Source of the DNA: a virus
Taxonomy: Duplodnaviria; Heunggongvirae; Uroviricota; Caudoviricetes
Virus record (IMG/VR): IMGVR_UViG_3300014205_000193
Length of the DNA: 64,000 bases
Reading direction: 5' to 3' (one strand)
Made by a program: the position numbers and the translations under genes. Below the pieces are notes generated by a model. That model saw only the letters and a program-made list of their open reading frames with translations, was not told the origin of the DNA and made no database searches. This document shows positions 16,471 to 40,916 of the stretch, one piece after another. Each line of letters starts with the position of its first letter. Position 1 is the stretch's first letter.

Positions 16471-16659
16471 ATGTTAAAATATAACACTGTTAAATTGCAG
16501 GCTTTAAAATGGGGTATTTCTGAAGGTCGGATCATTAAACTAATAGCTGATGGTCGTATTCCGACTGCTACTAGAATTGGTCGGGCATGGGTACTCCCCA
16601 ATGTTGTGAAAGACCCTCGTAAATGCCCTGGTTGGCAATTAGGGCGGAAAAGAAAATGA
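16471..16659 (+). CDS. small helix-turn-helix DNA-binding protein
   Basis: 62-aa ORF with an HTH-like segment LQALKWGISEGRIIKLIADGRIP. Confidence 0.4.
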   Translation: MLKYNTVKLQALKWGISEGRIIKLIADGRIPTATRIGRAWVLPNVVKDPRKCPGWQLGRKRK

Positions 16660-17699
16660 GAAAAAGAAATTTAATTAAAGACATTCCAGGATACAACGGA
16701 AAATATCGTATTGGTGAAGATGGGGTAGTATATAGGAGACAGATAACATACATCAAAGTAAAGGGTTTTTGTGATCCTACAGGGTACAAAAGTGTTCGAT
16801 TATATGCTGATGGGTATAGTGGTGTAAACATGTCTATCCATAGGCTTGTTGCAACTGTGTTTATAGAGAATAAACGCAACTTACCAATTGTACATCACAT
16901 TGACGGCAACCCTAGTAATAACTATAAAGGAAACTTGGAATGGTCTTCTTATTCACACAATAATAAGCATGCTTATGCGGTTAGTCGTGAGAAATATAAT
17001 CCGACTATTGATATTCCGAAAGAACAATTTGTTAATCTCCAGGATGCGAAGATAGCTAATCTCTCTAGTAAGCAAGAGTTATTTGTTCCATATTTGTACG
17101 ATCCAGCATACAAAGTCTCTAACAGAGGGCGTATACTATCTGTTAAGCAGGGTAAAACTAAACTACTGCGTCAGAAGCAGACTAGAGGTGGTTATTGTGC
17201 TCTTTCTCTACTGGTCACAGGCAGGGTTAAACATGTAAATATACATCGACTTGTCGCAGAACACTTTATTCCTAACCCAAATAATTTTAAAGTTGTTAAC
17301 CATAAGAATGGGATTAAGACAGATAACAGGGTTGAAAATTTAGAGTATTGTTCACATTCCTACAATACGCAACATGCTTGGAATACAGGTTTGATTACTC
17401 TTACACCAACCAAATTGGCTAAATTACATAAATATGGTTTTAAACCCAATAGGCAGCAGACCTACACCGAGAAATTAAAGCGATGCCGGAGTAACAACCC
17501 CTATCAAATTGCTGAGATATCTTCGAACGGGAGAATACTAAAAACCTGGTATTTTGCTAAAGATGTACAACAAGAGATGGGTATAAATAGGAAGTTGATC
17601 GGATTATGTGCTAAAGGAAAAATTACTGCTGTTGCAGGGAGAATATTTAGATATGTCCAAGAAGATAATTTGGGTGCTTTAAAGGTAGTGTCTGTATGA
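16656..17699 (+). CDS. HNH homing endonuclease with tandemly duplicated NUMOD4 + HNH_3 modules
   Basis: Two copies of the module: first IPGYNGKYRIGEDG ... HRLVATVFI..VHHIDGNPSNN..NLEW, second VPYLYDPAYKVSNRG ... HRLVAEHFI..VNHKNGIKTDN..NLEY. ATGA overlap with the upstream stop. Confidence 0.75.
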   Translation: MRKRNLIKDIPGYNGKYRIGEDGVVYRRQITYIKVKGFCDPTGYKSVRLYADGYSGVNMSIHRLVATVFIENKRNLPIVHHIDGNPSNNYKGNLEWSSYSHNNKHAYAVSREKYNPTIDIPKEQFVNLQDAKIANLSSKQELFVPYLYDPAYKVSNRGRILSVKQGKTKLLRQKQTRGGYCALSLLVTGRVKHVNIHRLVAEHFIPNPNNFKVVNHKNGIKTDNRVENLEYCSHSYNTQHAWNTGLITLTPTKLAKLHKYGFKPNRQQTYTEKLKRCRSNNPYQIAEISSNGRILKTWYFAKDVQQEMGINRKLIGLCAKGKITAVAGRIFRYVQEDNLGALKVVSV

Positions 17700-19616: not shown

Positions 19617-19780
19617 CTTCGGTAGACTATGCAAACAGTCTTGACCCGCGTATTAAGGCTGCTTATCAGGCAGGTGTATCCGCCGGGCGCAGCCAAATGT
19701 GTGATGAGATTTTGCAGGCTAGGGCTAATGATAAACCCACAGCTAAAGAGGTGAATGATGATAGTGTTGGGCAGTGATCA
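19613..19780 (+). CDS. small hypothetical protein (GTG start overlapping upstream stop)
   Basis: GTGA start/stop overlap; 55-aa protein-like composition VTSVDYANSLDPRIKAAYQAGV... Confidence 0.2.
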
Positions 19781-20066
19781 CTTATTACGACAGGCAGCGC
19801 ACTTAGCTAGTAAGCCACCTCTCTTCTCTGCTCCTGGTTTTTTTAGCTTTTTGCCCAGGCAGTTTATGCATATTTGTAACTATTTTAATTATCGTAAGTA
19901 TCTTAACAAATTGAAGATATGTAAGGTACTTCATAAATATAGCCGCTTGAGAGTGGATTTAAAGACAGGCGCATTATCTGTGCAAATCATGCCTTACGCA
20001 AACTTGAGAACGATAGCTATAACTTGTACTATTAGAAACAACTAACAACTATCTACAGGAGTAATT

Positions 20067-20348
20067 ATGGAATTTTTAACAGTGTATGCACAAGAACGGA
20101 TTACGGGAGAGGTGCATTATGATCTCCCGGTATTAATAAATGGGGAGGCTAACGGCTACACTGGCAATCCTATAAAATTAGATCCAGGAACCATTGATGT
20201 GTCTGTAGAGGCTGAGCATGCCGAGTCACACCACATACGACTGGAGAACACCACCGTGACTACTCCTCTTAAAGTAACTATTATGTTTGGGGATGAATAT
20301 CCTGAAATCCCGGATGTACCAGAATTTGACGGAGGTCCTAATGTTTAA
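20067..20348 (+). CDS. hypothetical protein
   Basis: 93-aa ORF with AGGAG RBS (ctacaggagtaattatg). Confidence 0.45.
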   Translation: MEFLTVYAQERITGEVHYDLPVLINGEANGYTGNPIKLDPGTIDVSVEAEHAESHHIRLENTTVTTPLKVTIMFGDEYPEIPDVPEFDGGPNV

Positions 20349-21729
20349 GAAGATTAAACGAGTGTTGCTGGTAGTCTTGACTTTTGGTTTATTGTATGGC
20401 CTGACCGGGGCATGTTGTTCCGCACAGTATAATATTGCAGGAAGAAGCAACCCTCCGTCACCAAAGCCAGTAGTTGAAGATGATCAGACCTTAATGTATA
20501 CTTGTTTTTCTGGTGGCGGCACTCGTGCTATGGCCATGGGTTATGAAGTTGTTGATGCCCTAGCTAAGGTTGATTATAAGGTTTATGTTAGAGGTCCTTC
20601 ACTTTTTGACACCACCACCCTACGTGAGGAAATAGACTATACATCAGGTGTCTCAGGAGGATCATTCGTAAGTGCGGCGCTAGCTGTTTACCCACAGGAA
20701 GAGTGGCCTATATTTTATCGTAAGGGGGTGTCCAGAGATATTCAAGGTAGCATTATTAAACATCTGCTGGCAGTTAAAAACTGGCCAAGATTACTGTCTC
20801 CTTATTATAACAGAACAGATTTAGCATCTGAGTTTTATGACCATCGGGTTTTTAAGAATTATACTTTTGGAGATTTGCCACAGAGGCCAGTGGTTTACAT
20901 CAACACAACAGTATTGGCTGCTCGATCGCACTTTGTTTTTACTGATGAATATTTTAGGTATATTGGTTCGGACATTTACAAATATCCTGTGGGCTTTGCT
21001 TGCGCAGCTTCCAGTGCCTTTCCTGTAGGTTTTGCCCCCATGACGCTGCGTAATTACATAAGAACCTATCAATCAGAAGATTCGCTCAGACTGAATGCAC
21101 ATTACAGATACGCGGTAGCTAATGAGCAAGCTGATATACAGCAGCATGCCTGGGCAGACTTATATCGATTTTTACGAGATACATCTAACCAGTGGTTGCA
21201 TGTATCTGATGGTGGTATTGCGGGGAACACAGGTATTGAGCGAGTATTAGACGCCTGGAGAAGTAACGGTATTATAAACCGAGCGCTGAATGACGTAAAA
21301 AATCCGCTGAAACGACTGATTTTTGTAGTTGTAAATGCAGGTGCAGGCGTCCCGGATGGTAGTTGTTCTAAGCGGATGGCGCCAAATGCCTTCAAGGTGT
21401 TAATGTATACCACTACCACTTCTATGGACCTAATGTCTGCCACCAGAATTGCGGAGTTAAAAGCACGGGTTGACGAATTGTGGACGATAATTCAACAGTC
21501 CAGAACTTTTGATGCTTCTCTGGCTAATTTGGAGAAACCATACTTAATAGAGATAAGTGCCCGAAACTTACCTGAAGGAGTGCTTAAGCAGGCTTTTAAT
21601 AACATACCTACGACATTTGACCTGCCCGCGGAGCAGTTATTGACTATTAGACAAGCAGTAGCAGAGTTGATGACTAATAACACAGAGTATCAAAGGTTAT
21701 TACAATCGATAGCAGCAGAGCGTAAATAA
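20341..21729 (+). CDS. patatin-like phospholipase with N-terminal signal peptide (possible lipoprotein)
   Basis: Oxyanion motif FSGGGTRAMAMGY, serine lipase motif GVSGGS (GxSxG), and DGG dyad motif HVSDGGIAGN. N-terminus MFKKIKRVLLVVLTFGLLYGLTGAC has a hydrophobic core followed by Cys. Confidence 0.7.
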   Translation: MFKKIKRVLLVVLTFGLLYGLTGACCSAQYNIAGRSNPPSPKPVVEDDQTLMYTCFSGGGTRAMAMGYEVVDALAKVDYKVYVRGPSLFDTTTLREEIDYTSGVSGGSFVSAALAVYPQEEWPIFYRKGVSRDIQGSIIKHLLAVKNWPRLLSPYYNRTDLASEFYDHRVFKNYTFGDLPQRPVVYINTTVLAARSHFVFTDEYFRYIGSDIYKYPVGFACAASSAFPVGFAPMTLRNYIRTYQSEDSLRLNAHYRYAVANEQADIQQHAWADLYRFLRDTSNQWLHVSDGGIAGNTGIERVLDAWRSNGIINRALNDVKNPLKRLIFVVVNAGAGVPDGSCSKRMAPNAFKVLMYTTTTSMDLMSATRIAELKARVDELWTIIQQSRTFDASLANLEKPYLIEISARNLPEGVLKQAFNNIPTTFDLPAEQLLTIRQAVAELMTNNTEYQRLLQSIAAERK

Positions 21730-22493: not shown

Positions 22494-22757
22494 ATGAATT
22501 TCGGAAAAGCAATTGAAGAATTGAAACTTAGTAAAAAAGTATCTCGTCAGGGTTGGAATGGAAAAGGAATGTTTCTTGCATTAGCGTATCCTAATACTTC
22601 ATGCTGCAATGAGGCGATCAAATTTAATCATGGCTATGAAGGTGTATCGCCAATATTGGAAAACTTCATAGTTATGAAAACAGCGGATAATAAACTCGTT
22701 CCGTGGCTTGCAAGTCAAACAGATGTACTCGCAGAGGATTGGGGAATCATAGAATAA
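22494..22757 (+). CDS. DUF2829-family protein, Tad2-like candidate anti-Thoeris signal sponge
   Basis: 87 aa with AGGAG RBS. MNFGKAIEELKLSKKVSRQGWNGKGMF...LVPWLASQTDVLAEDW matches my memory of the DUF2829 consensus (MNFGEA.EALK.GKKV.R.GWNGKGM ... PW..SQ.D.LAEDW). Confidence 0.55.
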   Translation: MNFGKAIEELKLSKKVSRQGWNGKGMFLALAYPNTSCCNEAIKFNHGYEGVSPILENFIVMKTADNKLVPWLASQTDVLAEDWGIIE

Positions 22758-35677: not shown

Positions 35678-36247
35678 ATGAAATTATCAACATATGCAAA
35701 AAAACTGGGTGTAACATATCGTACGGCCTGGAATCACTATCAGCAAGGAACTATACCTGGGGCATACGCTCTAGCAAATGGGACTATTATTGTACCCGAA
35801 GATAAAATATCAGCGATTGGATTAACGGCTACATATTCTCGCGTTTCTTCTTCTGAGAACAAAACTAACCTTGTAGCTCAGTCAAAGCGAGTGCAGGAAT
35901 TTTGTGCGGCTAAGGGTTGGGTTGTTTCTTTTGTTGTTGAGGAGTGTGGTAGCGGGCTTAACGATTCAAGAAAAAAATTAGAAAAGCTCTTGGATAATAA
36001 GCTGGTTACTCGTATTGTGGTAGAGCACAAGGATCGCCTTACGCGCTTTGGCTTTAATTATTTGAAAAAATTATGGCCTGGAGATATTGTCGTAATAAAT
36101 GAAGCGACGGAAGACGAAAAAGACTTAATGCAGGACTTCGTGTCTCTTGTTACGTCTTTCATGGCACGCCTTTATGGTCGAAGACGTAGTAGACGTGTAA
36201 CAGAAAAACTTATTAAAAAACTAAACGATGATTCAAAAAGCATATAA
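35678..36247 (+). CDS. tnpA: IS607-family transposase TnpA (serine recombinase with N-terminal MerR-like HTH)
   Basis: N-terminal HTH MKLSTYAKKLGVTYRTAWNHYQQG; catalytic-serine region YSRVSSSENK; resolvase-like core. Confidence 0.8.
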   Translation: MKLSTYAKKLGVTYRTAWNHYQQGTIPGAYALANGTIIVPEDKISAIGLTATYSRVSSSENKTNLVAQSKRVQEFCAAKGWVVSFVVEECGSGLNDSRKKLEKLLDNKLVTRIVVEHKDRLTRFGFNYLKKLWPGDIVVINEATEDEKDLMQDFVSLVTSFMARLYGRRRSRRVTEKLIKKLNDDSKSI

Positions 36248-37388
36248 ATTTAAAATTTATCCAAATGCTTCCCAAGCAGTTTTGTTAAACAAGACTTTTG
36301 GTGCTTGCCGTTATGCTTGGAACCAGTGGGTTGAAAATTTTAATAAGCCAAAAGAAGAAATCAAAGTTTTTAACACGCCCAAACAATTTAAAACTGACTT
36401 AGGCTGGATGAAGGAAATTAGCTCAGCCGCTATTCAACAAAAAGAGCAGGACTTCTTTGCGTTCAAGCAGCAGTTTTTTAACCAGAAGCGCAAAACTAAG
36501 TTAGGTAGACCAGCGTTTAAATCTCGTAAGAATAAGCAGTCTTATAGATTACCAAATCAGAAGTTTTACGTCGAAGACACTAAAATCAGGTTGGAAAAGA
36601 TTGGTTTCATTAAGGCTGTTTTTGATCGCGCAATTCCTGTTGGTGTGAAGTTTATAAATTGTACTATTAGTAAAGATGTAGTTGGTGACTTTTTTGTGTC
36701 TATCCTTGTGGAGCAAGATGTCCAACAGTTGCCTAAAACAGGAAAGACCATAGGTATTGACGTGGGGTTAAAGTCTTTTGCTGTATTGAGTGACGAGACT
36801 GTTATTGATAACCCAAAATTTTTCAGAGAGAACCAATCTGGATTAAAGCGGATTCAACAGCACTTGTCTCGCAAGGTCAAAGGTTCTAACCATTATAAAA
36901 AAACCAAACGACAGGCAGCAAGAGTTCAAAGAAAAACTGCAAGACAACGCAATTACTTCCTGCACAATGTCTCGTCCTATATTGTAAATAATTTTGATGT
37001 TATCGCAATAGAGGATTTAAACATTAAAGGAATGGTGAAAAATCATTGTCTTGCTAAGTCTGTTCATGACGCTTCTTGGTCTGAGTTCTTCAGACAACTT
37101 GATTACAAGGCCGCGTGGTACGGGAAGACATTGAGGGTGGTCGGAAGGTTTGAACCCACGTCCAAGACTTGTAACGTGTGTGGTTTCTATTATAAGGATA
37201 TGACTCTTGACATAAGAGAATGGGCTTGTCCTTGTTGCGAGACTGTACACGACAGAGATGTAAACGCAGCTAAAAACATTTTAAAACAATCCGTAAGAGT
37301 TGATGCGGAGCTACAGACGTGGAGTGAGTATCAGACTTTAGGAAACCAAACTGAAGCGACTCTCTGTGAAGTGTCGAGGGTTTTATGA
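36228..37388 (+). CDS. tnpB: TnpB (OrfB) RuvC-like RNA-guided nuclease family, IS200/IS605/IS607
   Basis: N-terminus KAYKFKIYPNASQ; RuvC-like IGIDVGLKSFAVLSD ... AIEDLNIKGM; C-terminal zinc finger CNVCGFYYK...CPCCETVHDRDVNAAKNI. Confidence 0.85.
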   Translation: MIQKAYKFKIYPNASQAVLLNKTFGACRYAWNQWVENFNKPKEEIKVFNTPKQFKTDLGWMKEISSAAIQQKEQDFFAFKQQFFNQKRKTKLGRPAFKSRKNKQSYRLPNQKFYVEDTKIRLEKIGFIKAVFDRAIPVGVKFINCTISKDVVGDFFVSILVEQDVQQLPKTGKTIGIDVGLKSFAVLSDETVIDNPKFFRENQSGLKRIQQHLSRKVKGSNHYKKTKRQAARVQRKTARQRNYFLHNVSSYIVNNFDVIAIEDLNIKGMVKNHCLAKSVHDASWSEFFRQLDYKAAWYGKTLRVVGRFEPTSKTCNVCGFYYKDMTLDIREWACPCCETVHDRDVNAAKNILKQSVRVDAELQTWSEYQTLGNQTEATLCEVSRVL

Positions 37389-37838: not shown

Positions 37839-38201
37839 TTGCTAATTATGAAGTATTATATCTCAACACAGATTCACGGAGAAAAAGAAGTTGATAAAGA
37901 GACATACATTGCATATGAGCAGGCTGCGGGTTTTATTTCTAAGTTTGGCCGAGATGCGGTTGCAACCGCATCCTTCTTTTTTGGTGGCCTTATAAGTGGT
38001 CGTGTTGATTATTCTGAGAAGGTTGAAACGCCTAATTTAATTTCTGAAGCACCTAAAGTCTGTAGTAGATCAACTGATTGCGCGTACATTAGAGTGGAAG
38101 GGCATTGTAAAGGGGTAACCTGTAAGGTATACGACCCAATTACAGCACTGGAGTCTGCGGAGCGAGACCTAGGTGACCGGGATCTTGACGATGGATGCTG
38201 A
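37839..38201 (+). CDS. hypothetical protein
   Basis: 120-aa ORF. Confidence 0.45.
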   Translation: MLIMKYYISTQIHGEKEVDKETYIAYEQAAGFISKFGRDAVATASFFFGGLISGRVDYSEKVETPNLISEAPKVCSRSTDCAYIRVEGHCKGVTCKVYDPITALESAERDLGDRDLDDGC

Positions 38202-38273
38202 TTACTAATGCAGGGAACATTCTATGGACATTTTGTTTATCGGAGGTCACACGTATAAGAAAGGCAGGGTATA

Positions 38274-38531
38274 GTGCGAGCAAAGGTCTTAAATAAAGCA
38301 GGTGACGTCAAGGAGCTGAACGGGCATAAGGATGCATTTACTCGCTGTATGCAATACTTTATAGGGCGGACGATATTGTTTAAGAAGCATCCTCTTTATA
38401 AGGGTTGGTATAGACGAAGTGGTTCTTATTTTTTAGCTTGGCATCCGTCATGGCTTCGAGAGGTTAAGAGGGTAATTAAAAAAGGCTCTAAGACGGTCTC
38501 ATGTACTGCAAAAAGAAAAAGGGGTGATTGA
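38274..38531 (+). CDS. hypothetical protein
   Basis: 85-aa ORF. Confidence 0.4.
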   Translation: MRAKVLNKAGDVKELNGHKDAFTRCMQYFIGRTILFKKHPLYKGWYRRSGSYFLAWHPSWLREVKRVIKKGSKTVSCTAKRKRGD

Positions 38532-38704
38532 TGGGAACGCAAGTTAATAAAGCGGCCTACGAGGCACTAATTAAAGAGGACATGGATGCAGTAGTGGCCG
38601 AGATGTCGAAATCCCCGGAGCGAGCACATGTGATTCAGATTCTCCAGTGGTCCGTTGATGCATTATATCCATCCACAGCAAGATTTGAGCAGTCTTCAAT
38701 ATGA
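38531..38704 (+). CDS. small hypothetical protein (57 aa)
   Basis: TGATG and ATGA overlaps with both neighbouring genes suggest a coupled small gene. Confidence 0.3.
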   Translation: MGTQVNKAAYEALIKEDMDAVVAEMSKSPERAHVIQILQWSVDALYPSTARFEQSSI

Positions 38705-38898
38705 CTTTCAGTGCTGATATAGACTGCCCGCATTGCACAGCGGTATTCCCTGTAAAATTACATGAGGGGGATCAGGGCAGCTGTCCAAAATGTGGTGCTA
38801 AATTTTTTATAGACAGCATAGGTTTGGATCATGATTGGTGCTTCCCTTCGTGGGAAAATCAACCTATCCAAGCCACAAACCACGAGACATCTAATTGA
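38701..38898 (+). CDS. small zinc-ribbon protein
   Basis: CPHCTAVFPV...CPKCGAKF. Confidence 0.4.
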   Translation: MTFSADIDCPHCTAVFPVKLHEGDQGSCPKCGAKFFIDSIGLDHDWCFPSWENQPIQATNHETSN

Positions 38899-38918
38899 TT
38901 ACTCGACCTTAAAATAAG

Positions 38919-38947
38919 AAAAGCCGAGGAGCCTCGGCTTTAAAGGA
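38919..38947. terminator. bidirectional rho-independent terminator
   Basis: aaaaGCCGAGGagcCTCGGCttta: 7-bp GC stem flanked by an A-run and a T-run. Confidence 0.6.
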
Positions 38948-39010
38948 ATTAAAAATGAATGTCTCCAACCTCGAATCTGTATAACCGGTCATTCAGCCGG
39001 TTTTATTAAC

Positions 39011-39169
39011 TTATATCTCTAATGATCGCACGCCCATTGCAGGCGGTGCATTCTTTAACTCTGTTATCCTGTTTTCACAGGCTGTCACTCCATCCACAAA
39101 ACCAACCTTGTATCCGCGCTGGAACTCGGCGGCTGTTTGTGCATTGGAATCTATTGTAGGACTGTTCAT
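39011..39169 (-). CDS. small protein (52 aa), second gene of reverse-oriented cassette
   Basis: ATG lies 3 nt after the stop of the Gly-rich gene (taaggtatg); GAGG upstream; MNSPTIDSNAQTAAEFQRGYKVGFVDGV... Confidence 0.35.
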   Translation of the reverse strand: MNSPTIDSNAQTAAEFQRGYKVGFVDGVTACENRITELKNAPPAMGVRSLEI

Positions 39170-39172
39170 ACC

Positions 39173-39457
39173 TTAATCCTCTATCTTATCACCAATCACC
39201 TTGCCTGCTGCTGCTCCGCCTACCGCAGCTACGCCTCCGACGACTGCCGTAGTCCCGGCAACAGTTCCTGTGATCGCAGCTGCTGACGCACTGGCCAATG
39301 CTGCTCCACTTAAGGTACTAATAGCTGTGCCGGTCCCGGCCGCACCTAATAGTCCTGCCGCTCCGGCGATTGGAAGTATCACGGGTGTCAATAATACCGC
39401 AGCACCACCTGCCGCCACTGCCCCTACGGCAATACATGCAACTTTGAATGGATTCAA
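39173..39457 (-). CDS. Gly/Ala-rich glycine-zipper-like small membrane protein
   Basis: 94 aa made almost entirely of G/A/V/L/T (AVGAVAAGGAAV..AGAAGLLGAAGTGTA..) with a charged tail KVIGDKIED. It is the only minus-strand gene inside the plus-strand block. Confidence 0.5.
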   Translation of the reverse strand: MNPFKVACIAVGAVAAGGAAVLLTPVILPIAGAAGLLGAAGTGTAISTLSGAALASASAAAITGTVAGTTAVVGGVAAVGGAAAGKVIGDKIED

Positions 39458-39469
39458 TCACGCCTCCAG

Positions 39470-39500
39470 GTTAAGTAAAGAAAGCCGACCAACCAAGGCC
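39470..39500. terminator. bidirectional terminator-like hairpin
   Basis: aaaGCCGaccaaccaaggCCGGCttt hairpin with an A-run and T-run. Confidence 0.45.
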
Positions 39501-39722
39501 GGCTTTATATTTCGAAACTTTCATTAATGAATAATATATACTCAAATCCATGCAATGTCAACATTTATTTTTTAGTTACTTGATCAGCTTTTAATAGCTT
39601 TTAGGGGTCAGTAGTTGTAAACTCCATAACCCAGTTCAACTTCTCGTGCATTTAGTAGGTGCAGATGTTATTTTGTAGTACATATAGTAATAGGATGATC
39701 TAAATCGAAAAAAGGGGTTATT

Positions 39723-40916
39723 ATGTCACAAGGTCCCGCCAATCCAGAGAAATGCGGTAAGAAGATAGACGAATCTGAGTATGTGTGGATTATCACGTCA
39801 CATATTAATCAGTCCACGCCGGATGCCAAGCTCATCCGCATGTTGAAGGAGAAGTATGGGTTTAAGGTTAGCTTGCCGAGTCTGCTGGCGTTTAAGCGTA
39901 ATTACTACCCGACACGTCTCACCATGCTGAAGAAGGAGACCATCAAGTTCAAACAGGAGCAGACGGGTCAGATACAGACCTTTATTGATGAGTCTCTGAG
40001 ACAGGCGGACGCTATTGAGGTAGAGATTGGCGGCATGACGAAGCAAGTTGAACTCGTTACCCGTCAGCTGGATTTTGTCCGTAAGTTTGAATGCTTGTTC
40101 CAGAACGCCATTGATCGCTATGTGGATGCATACGACCCGGCTTCGCCTGATCCGTTCTTATACACCTCATCACCTAAATCTGAGGCCCAGCGTCTGCTGA
40201 CGGAGGTAGTTACGGGTATGGGTGAGGAGGGGCGTAACGCGCTGGTGGCATATGTTCAGACTCGAAACGCTTTCCCGCTGGTTAAATTGTTCACGCTTCT
40301 CACAGCCAAGTTGAAAGACCTCCGCATGGCGAAGCACGACATTCATAAGAACATCTTCAAATCATATAGGAATCTATCCATCTCTCAGGAGATGACAGTT
40401 ATATTTGAGCGTTATAACGGTATCATTGTGGAGGAGTTCTTCCCGGACAAATCCAACATAGATGCGCAGAAGTTCGCCAGGGTTAATCAGAAGGTACGCG
40501 CACTCTTTGATGAACTCAATACACGTTATCAGGGCGTAGAGACTCCGTCTGACCATGGCCGTAATCCTACCACCGAGGAAATACAGAAGCTAGACCAGGG
40601 CATCATGCCTACCTCATCTCCAATAGAGGAACCCGCCTTAAAAGGTCAGAAGGGACGCCAACCAGCTAAATCCACCGTCATCGCACGTGAACGCGCTAAA
40701 GCCGCAGCCACCACCGCCGTGATAGAGGATACCGAGGATAGCGAAATAGAACCCACCTCTATGGAAGTAGAACCGCCTGACTCCGATACTACCGACTATA
40801 CACCTGAAGAGGCCGCTACGGTATATAAAGAGATAGAGACCCAAGCAGCCGAACCCGACCTATTCAGACAGGCACTAGGAGATGAAGATACACGCGGAGA
40901 ATCACATGCCGAGTAA
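39723..40916 (+). CDS. hypothetical protein with acidic C-terminus
   Basis: 397-aa ORF; GGGG RBS. Confidence 0.5.
   Translation: MSQGPANPEKCGKKIDESEYVWIITSHINQSTPDAKLIRMLKEKYGFKVSLPSLLAFKRNYYPTRLTMLKKETIKFKQEQTGQIQTFIDESLRQADAIEVEIGGMTKQVELVTRQLDFVRKFECLFQNAIDRYVDAYDPASPDPFLYTSSPKSEAQRLLTEVVTGMGEEGRNALVAYVQTRNAFPLVKLFTLLTAKLKDLRMAKHDIHKNIFKSYRNLSISQEMTVIFERYNGIIVEEFFPDKSNIDAQKFARVNQKVRALFDELNTRYQGVETPSDHGRNPTTEEIQKLDQGIMPTSSPIEEPALKGQKGRQPAKSTVIARERAKAAATTAVIEDTEDSEIEPTSMEVEPPDSDTTDYTPEEAATVYKEIETQAAEPDLFRQALGDEDTRGESHAE

Follow-up and report, generated by a model that had tools for sequence, protein, structure and literature searches.

The o-spanin of the Rz/Rz1 pair is an outer-membrane lipoprotein with a lipobox, and spanins act by fusing membranes and not by hydrolysis. 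LysB, which belongs to the lysis cassette of phages of mycolic-acid bacteria, is a cutinase-like lipolytic esterase, and Llp of phage T5 and the Cor-type early lipoproteins are small non-enzymatic receptor blockers. In Serratia (PhlA/PhlB) and Yersinia (YplA/YplB), a phospholipase is encoded together with a small protective protein, and PhlB protects Serratia from PhlA. Earlier examples of phage-borne patatins come from phage WO and from prophages, where they are morons; to the best of our knowledge, none has a demonstrated role in the phage life cycle. In Wolbachia phage WO, a temperate phage in whose host peptidoglycan has never been detected, a gene for a patatin-like phospholipase adjoins a holin-like gene and the tail module, and it was proposed to be part of a patatin-based lytic cassette in which its role is hypothesised (PMC9203015). 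Here, we describe a two-gene module on a 64,000-nucleotide stretch of DNA (hereafter, the window) from the IMG/VR virus record IMGVR_UViG_3300014205_000193, assigned to the Caudoviricetes, in which a gene for a patatin-like acyl hydrolase with a predicted export signal is preceded by a small gene for a PEGA-like partner. The element that carries the pair is very probably the genome of an uncultured huge phage. We consider it rather probable that the pair is a module acquired from bacteria whose exported enzyme hydrolyses envelope lipids, which is a statement on its mechanism and not on a specific role. The patatin enzyme type is known, and it is the export-plus-partner architecture and the residence in a huge-phage lineage that are undescribed in the literature searched; full-text searches returned no paper linking patatin genes functionally to PEGA domains and none describing a phage-encoded patatin in jumbo phages.

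The predicted product of the open reading frame (ORF) at the centre of this locus can be placed in the patatin family, as a distant branch, on solid grounds of both sequence and modelled fold, because the Pfam match, the invariant motifs, a confident AlphaFold2 model and structural matches to patatin folds all agree. The same ORF is called on the source contig (ENA ERZ27247358, k141_2474311, 236,752 bp) with its start at the ATG at 20341; longer in-frame starts are available at TTG 20287 and ATG 20314, and the homologs all align from the Met at 20341. Pfam Patatin (PF01734) matched the product over aa 55-299 with 47.3 bits against a curated cut-off of 27.7 (E=3.7e-12), and an NCBIfam search and a sequence search of PDB chains gave no match. 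The homolog set comprised 103 proteins, and invariance was judged in an alignment of 94 sequences, in which S57, G58, G59, G60, R62, S105, G106, G107, D290 and G291 are invariant down to 23% identity. The initial annotation had claimed a complete patatin motif context, and the oxyanion-hole loop, the nucleophile elbow and the DGG motif were indeed found where it had placed them (Table 1); the conservation of the catalytic Ser and Asp in homologs, which it had named as decisive, is borne out by the invariance of S105 and D290. The AlphaFold2 model built on the 94-sequence alignment has a mean predicted local distance difference test score (pLDDT) of 95.3 and a predicted template modelling score of 0.93, and its C-terminal region (aa ~350-461) is helical, with helices at 350-387 and 430-461. 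When the model was compared with the PDB using Foldseek, the best matches were CapE, CapV, potato Pat17 and PlpD, followed by VipD, iPLA2-beta and cPLA2, and the top ones among 26 matches at E <= 0.001 were patatin-fold or cPLA2-type lipases. The nearest solved folds share 10-15% identity with the protein at a template modelling (TM) score of about 0.45. In a viral structure library, giant eukaryotic viruses supplied nearly all of the folds similar to the model, and an uncultured tailed phage supplied one.

Particularly, the enzyme appears to be addressed to the envelope. Its N-terminus, MFKKIKR-VLLVVLTFGLLYGL-TGAC-C (full stretch MFKKIKRVLLVVLTFGLLYGLTGACCSAQYN), has four Lys/Arg residues, then a 14-residue hydrophobic core and the adjacent Cys25 and Cys26. 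A basic n-region and a hydrophobic core before a Cys form the same architecture throughout the family, and in our alignment (A1) the position of Cys26 is a Cys with hardly an exception and corresponds to the lipobox Cys of the bacterial relatives. Because the signal and the Cys are kept family-wide, the export signal is no chance feature and the predicted export of the catalytic domain is well supported; a lipobox-type N-terminus was found in no other plausible ORF of the window. The initial annotation had proposed a cleavable signal-peptide-like N-terminus on a secreted protein or lipoprotein, and of this proposal export stands, but the lipoprotein part is less certain. The PROSITE lipobox pattern (PS51257) matches the window protein at Cys25, whereas the strict [LVI][ASTVI][GAS]C rule does not, the residue at -3 being Thr. 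The PROSITE pattern fits 63 of the 103 homologs, several of the others being truncated or mis-started, and more distant bacterial homologs have textbook lipoboxes (…ISGC, …VAGC and …LSAC, also …AGC). Directly after the bacterial lipobox, x-x-Y-P-(V/I)-N-x-P-L is conserved, and the phage proteins keep (S/T)(P/A)xYN. Most members of the phage clade (P0006-P0020, A1 columns ~28-40) read L-L-C-R-C-C-(S/T)-P-x-Y-N, which fits neither lipobox pattern. This C-R-C-C motif may be a signal peptidase I site, with which the Cys residues at -3 and -1 would be compatible, a degenerate lipobox or a Cys cluster. Because it replaces the lipobox in most of the clade, lipidation is less certain than export; judged from the sequence, it is plausible for the window protein and not settled for the phage clade.

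The second component of the module is the partner gene, whose stop codon TAA overlaps the patatin ATG by 8 nt (ATGTTTAA). Because of this overlap, and because the Shine-Dalgarno sequence of the patatin gene lies inside the partner gene, the arrangement reads as a classic case of translational coupling. The conserved domain (MEF/YLxV…) begins right at the N-terminus of the partner proteins, which therefore appear to have no signal peptide. A word-indexed homology search with the partner retrieved only the query itself, but an exhaustive phmmer search yielded small stand-alone relatives as well as Pfam-annotated PEGA repeats in large multi-repeat proteins. For example, aa 7-66 of the partner align with 74-132 of P0120, where Pfam places PEGA at 75-141, and another match is P0131 with its 19 PEGA repeats; a direct Pfam scan of the partner gave no match at E<=1, PEGA (PF08308) included. 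Its AlphaFold2 model (pLDDT 92.5) is an all-beta, seven-strand beta-sandwich, for which Foldseek returned weak matches to transthyretin-like or carboxypeptidase-regulatory (CarboxypepD_reg) domains (best E=8e-3).

The pairing of the two genes is not confined to the window. A partner homolog lies directly upstream of the patatin gene in a 67%-identical relative and in a bacterial chromosomal locus whose patatin is 38% identical. Using an iterated hidden Markov model built from the partner sequences of the window, the relative and the bacterium, we found the partner adjoining patatin in all five phage-context loci (the window itself, L001, and L002, L005, L006 and L091) and in both inspected loci of the nearest bacterial clade (L003 and L092). 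GTDB species genomes contain at least 489 relatives of the patatin, and among the 80 best loci, which were kept for a neighbourhood survey (patatin identity 28-42%), the partner is next to patatin in 24, upstream on the same strand in all but L010, where it is just downstream. When the flanks of these 80 loci were clustered, no conserved neighbour other than the PEGA-like gene emerged. The 151-aa gene downstream of patatin was also considered as a part of the module and was rejected, since, of the relatives inspected, only the closest one conserves it, and RRM-domain genes take its place in others.

Table 1. Coordinates in the window of the features of the patatin locus
Feature	Position	Strand	Details
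AT-rich stretch upstream of the pair, possible promoter region (weak)	19780..20066	+	~290 nt; only weak consensus matches
Shine-Dalgarno sequence AGGAG of the partner gene	20057-20061	+	Read from the sequence
Partner gene, stand-alone PEGA-like / transthyretin-like beta-sandwich, signal-less (predicted)	20067..20348	+	93 aa; ORF, phmmer, AlphaFold2, Foldseek
Shine-Dalgarno sequence GGAGG of the patatin gene	20331..20335	+	Read from the sequence; 5 nt before the ATG; within the 3' end of the partner gene
Patatin-like acyl hydrolase / phospholipase gene	20341..21729	+	462 aa; Pfam PF01734, 103 homologs, AlphaFold2, Foldseek
Predicted export signal, aa 1-26	20341..20418	+	Basic n-region, 14-residue hydrophobic core, LTGAC-C; Cys25 codon 20413-20415, Cys26 codon 20416-20418
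GGGTR oxyanion-hole loop, aa 58-62	20512..20526	+	G58-G60 and R62 invariant (94 sequences)
GVSGG nucleophile elbow, aa 103-107	20647..20661	+	Ser105 codon 20653-20655; S105-G106-G107 invariant
DGG motif with catalytic Asp290, aa 290-292	21208..21216	+	D290 and G291 invariant; G292 nearly invariant

The distribution of the family points to a bacterial source. The host phyla of the 80 loci, many of them diderm, include Nitrospirota, Thermodesulfobacteriota, Verrucomicrobiota, Pseudomonadota, Myxococcota and Acidobacteriota, and some megaplasmids and conjugative plasmids carry family members too. In a neighbour-joining tree, P0001-P0022 together with P0024, P0031, P0034 and P0036 form one clade, which holds all five verified phage-like contexts on both of its main branches and is sister to a clade with two verified bacterial contexts. 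In each of the five related contigs that we inspected, the pair follows the same DEAD helicase at a distance of 2-7 kb downstream, with varying genes in between, and patatin identity is 47-67% among these five phage loci and falls to about 37% across the whole clade. The GC content of the patatin gene (0.427) matches that of the surrounding block (0.414). The simplest reading of these data is that the intact pair was captured once from bacteria by an ancestor of the phage lineage and then retained vertically for a long time, with purifying selection on the catalytic residues. Among known phages, megablast and tblastn searches of the region and of patatin against 50,697 GenBank phage records gave no similarity, the patatins of those phages included, and a PHROGs search with patatin and its neighbours gave no match. 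The claim that the enzyme is phage-encoded can be kept in that the genome is very probably that of a huge phage, but the patatin gene is no lone phage novelty, being half of a two-gene module that many diderm bacteria have as well and that is inherited within a phage lineage. As a separate observation, distant members of the family (27% identity over aa 135-457) were seen on IncA/IncP-type conjugative plasmids of Enterobacteriaceae, where they adjoin a relaxase gene and efflux genes, as on the Citrobacter freundii plasmid pC50_001 (L094, NZ_CP042479.1 72715-74025).

As for the element itself, the window and its flanks encode DnaB, two DEAD helicases, a DnaG-type primase, several DNA methyltransferases and glycosyltransferases, and the contig beyond the start of the window (L089 11366-21311) adds a RecA/UvsX-like protein, a clamp loader, a PolA-UDG fusion, an IF1/eIF-1a-like gene and SbcCD. 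The PolA is nearest to phage PolA genes, at only about 28% identity to any GenBank phage PolA. The genes are small and dense, and almost all of them lie on one strand. A 90-kb relative (L005) is listed in IMG/VR, and IMG/VR scans with a conserved 682-aa protein retrieved only the one related viral contig already known. As to virion structure, a weak baseplate match is all that emerged. The roughly 90 kb that we inspected yielded no gene for a capsid, portal or terminase, PHROG and INPHARED/GenBank-phage searches left the large ORFs unmatched, and a tblastn search for virion hallmarks with the ORFs of 531 aa and 1226 aa returned nothing from phages; tRNA and Rfam scans of the window were likewise empty.

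Other features of the window, all on the plus strand, are two mobile elements, namely an HNH/NUMOD4 homing endonuclease (16623-17699) and a pair of a resolvase and a TnpB (OrfB_IS605/Cas12f-like TNB; 35678-37388), and a 2956-aa polyvalent protein (45459-54329) with an ART-PolyVal ADP-ribosyltransferase (ART) domain around aa 913-1035, the ART segment of which gave short matches to phage genes annotated as 'lysis protein' or as hypothetical. The base composition of the window changes at ~38000-40000, where GC rises from about 0.41 to about 0.47, with 0.40 vs 0.51 at third codon positions (GC3), and this step suggests that the genome has two modules that differ in history or in expression class.

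In the immediate neighbourhood of the pair, the AT-rich stretch upstream of the partner gene contains a called ORF of 95 aa with an odd low-complexity sequence, which is probably not a gene. The stretch has no Rfam match and, by k-mer search, no motif in common with other intergenic regions; the scan for promoter and terminator consensus sequences and the k-mer search for upstream motifs gave nothing usable for expression timing. Two genes downstream of patatin lies a Tad2-like gene (22494-22757, plus strand, with a longer ORF from 22332; Thoeris anti-defence 2-like domain, PF11195, E=3.4e-24), which suggests that the block around patatin holds anti-defence functions. Neighbouring genes of the related loci can be added here. 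In L005 (6125-9747), an Apyc1-like (anti-Pycsar) gene is apparently split into pieces of 73 aa and 207 aa with a resolvase, a LAGLIDADG gene and TnpB between them, and may have been interrupted by these mobile elements; its 207-aa piece ends about 250 bp upstream of patatin, just before the partner gene. In L091 (9912-12222), formyltransferase, glycosyltransferase and GDSL-lipase genes follow patatin, with one 185-aa ORF between, and this cluster may be envelope- or glycan-modifying. A further IMG/VR contig (L008) has another patatin family member at its edge, next to an XRE/ImmA-type pair.

In the mechanism that we propose, a lineage of very large phages would have taken the two-gene module from diderm bacteria. 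The patatin-like acyl hydrolase with its Ser105/Asp290 dyad would be exported by the Sec pathway and would stay tethered to the membrane at its N-terminus, either through a lipidated Cys or through an uncleaved signal helix. On the periplasmic side, the catalytic domain could then hydrolyse acyl esters of envelope glycerophospholipids or lysophospholipids. The partner may act in the cytoplasm, where, on the analogy of PhlB, it would restrain or escort the enzyme before export, for example by keeping the precursor inactive.

Several other explanations of the locus have to be weighed against this mechanism, and they differ in what they make of the element and of the enzyme. If the element were not a phage but a megaplasmid, another extrachromosomal element or a mis-binned bacterial region, the patatin would be an ordinary bacterial lipoprotein gene. 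The lack of capsid, portal and terminase genes in the about 90 kb inspected and the large ORFs unmatched in PHROG and INPHARED fit this idea, as do the family members on megaplasmids and conjugative plasmids and the fact that polyvalent ART proteins occur on conjugative elements too. We nevertheless regard it as quite improbable in view of the phage-style self-sufficient replication set (PolA-UDG, clamp loader, RecA/UvsX-like, SbcCD and IF1-like genes), the dense, tiny and unidirectional ORFs, the HNH/NUMOD4 homing endonuclease, the Tad2-like and Apyc1-like genes, a PolA closest to that of phages, a relative that is an IMG/VR viral genome and the weak baseplate match; in addition, no relaxase or type IV secretion system genes were seen. 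Within a phage, the pair might be a moron-like passenger, or a gene pair of benefit to the host, that keeps a bacterial housekeeping function and brings no phage-specific advantage. The same pair is chromosomal in many bacteria, a family member stands beside an XRE/ImmA-type pair at the edge of contig L008, and Burkholderia prophages are reported to carry patatin genes as morons (PMC2920897). However, the pair is syntenic in five inspected contigs that have diverged to 47-67% identity, with invariant catalytic residues, and this retention despite divergence speaks for lasting selection in the phage; nor was an integrase seen, and the small resolvases belong with TnpB elements. A passenger is thus improbable. 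As for the link to the cyclic oligonucleotide-based antiphage signalling system (CBASS) drawn by the initial annotation, what is shared is the fold only. A cytoplasmic defence or counter-defence effector related to CapV and CapE, whether nucleotide-activated or a decoy, would suit the rank of these two proteins as best structural neighbours, the weak match to the PADLOC phospholipase-effector model (22.5 bits, E=1.5e-5) and the anti-defence genes nearby. But identity to CapV and CapE is 13-14% at a TM score of about 0.45, no better than for plant patatin or PlpD, the PADLOC match covers the generic patatin core only, the conserved export signal would put the enzyme outside the cytoplasm, and neither the window locus nor any related locus has a cyclase or another CBASS gene next to the patatin, so that we rejected a CBASS phospholipase effector and hold such a role to be extremely unlikely. 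For counter-defence in general, which had also been suggested, there is no specific support, the anti-defence genes nearby being all that speaks for it. A type Vd autotransporter of the PlpD/FplA kind was rejected as well, since the protein ends at aa 462 with helices and has no C-terminal POTRA or 16-strand beta-barrel.

With regard to the role of the proposed exported hydrolase in the phage, for which the initial annotation had named lysis and superinfection exclusion among the possibilities, we tentatively favour a weakening of the outer membrane that helps envelope breakdown at release, which would make the enzyme, by analogy, an enzymatic counterpart of spanins or LysB. LysB and the cassette proposed for phage WO are precedents for such a role. 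The gene behaves like a core gene of the lineage, and an envelope-addressed lipolytic enzyme suits that step. A more specific version, which we think rather unlikely as it stands, is an enzymatic disruptor of the outer membrane that acts as the last step of lysis, replacing spanins or working beside them, with a membrane-tethered patatin that faces the periplasm and is held in check before export by its PEGA-like partner, and with the bacterial module being an uncharacterised envelope-lipid system. A number of observations weigh against the release role or against the mechanism behind it. Neither the surroundings of the pair nor the rest of the window yielded a holin, endolysin or spanin gene or any lysozyme, amidase or holin-type Pfam or PHROG match, and capsid, portal and terminase genes were not found in the region inspected either. 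The block of replication, methylase and anti-defence genes around the pair fits early expression better than lysis. The module is not lytic in itself, since bacteria tolerate it as part of their chromosomes. The partner, having no signal peptide, cannot meet the enzyme after export, its role is argued by analogy only, and lipidation may have been lost in the C-R-C-C proteins of the phage clade. Alternatively, the enzyme might be expressed early, as an exported lipase that alters the lipids of the periplasmic face soon after infection and so serves exclusion or remodelling. Such an enzyme could block secondary infection, spare progeny from being lost to debris or vesicles, or stabilise the envelope over a long infection, and its logic would be like that of the early lipoprotein Llp of T5, although by enzymatic means. 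The pair lies within a low-GC accessory block with a helicase, methyltransferases and the Tad2-like gene two genes downstream; in L005, the Apyc1-like gene is two genes upstream of patatin, directly before the partner; the formyltransferase, glycosyltransferase and GDSL-lipase genes just downstream in L091 suggest a theme of envelope modification; and lysis genes are lacking near the pair. On the other hand, the promoter searches identified no motif, the place of a gene says little in large phages, the spanin genes of T4 also being among early genes, and we know of no exclusion system with a phospholipase. We hold early envelope modification to be nearly as likely as release, with neither of them more likely than not, and release remains the role that we tentatively prefer.

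We believe that the locus is a concrete and testable unit, namely an exported patatin with a small PEGA-like partner that is widespread in diderm bacteria and kept in a huge-phage lineage; it is a clean gene pair with a plausible link, as read from its sequence, to phage-envelope biology. If the outer membrane is breached or remodelled by the enzyme, an enzymatic route would join the spanin and disruptin solutions for passing the last barrier in the lysis of Gram-negative hosts, and the alternative, if true, would be a new kind of exclusion mechanism. In either case, a function could be assigned to an unannotated bacterial gene pair. If the pair is a passenger only, it would be a case of ordinary horizontal transfer.

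In conclusion, compared with the described systems, the window protein is similar to Pat17, CapV/CapE and the passenger domain of PlpD in its alpha/beta fold, Ser-Asp dyad, GGGxR/K loop, GxSxG elbow and DG motif, but it differs from all of them in its export/lipobox signal, its helical C-terminal region and its PEGA-like partner; it is also without the POTRA and beta-barrel of PlpD and without the cyclase partner of CapV. Like the enzyme of phage WO, it is a phage-borne patatin-like protein for which action on host membranes is proposed, but it has no holin neighbour and has instead the PEGA-like partner and the export signal. More generally, the pair differs from lysis cassettes of the spanin, LysB or WO-patatin type in that it is not adjacent to holin or endolysin genes. 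Spanins and LysB are likewise phage envelope proteins that handle the outermost membrane, with no homology to the window patatin. The locus resembles PhlA/PhlB and YplA/YplB in that the gene of an exported phospholipase is paired with the gene of a small signal-less protein, whereas the enzyme family, the gene order (their partner is downstream) and the export route (theirs is flagellar) are different and the partners are non-homologous. Finally, the window protein shares with T5 Llp and Cor a phage-encoded lipoprotein-type signal and the host envelope as the predicted place of action, but, unlike these small receptor blockers, it is a 462-aa enzyme with conserved catalytic residues.

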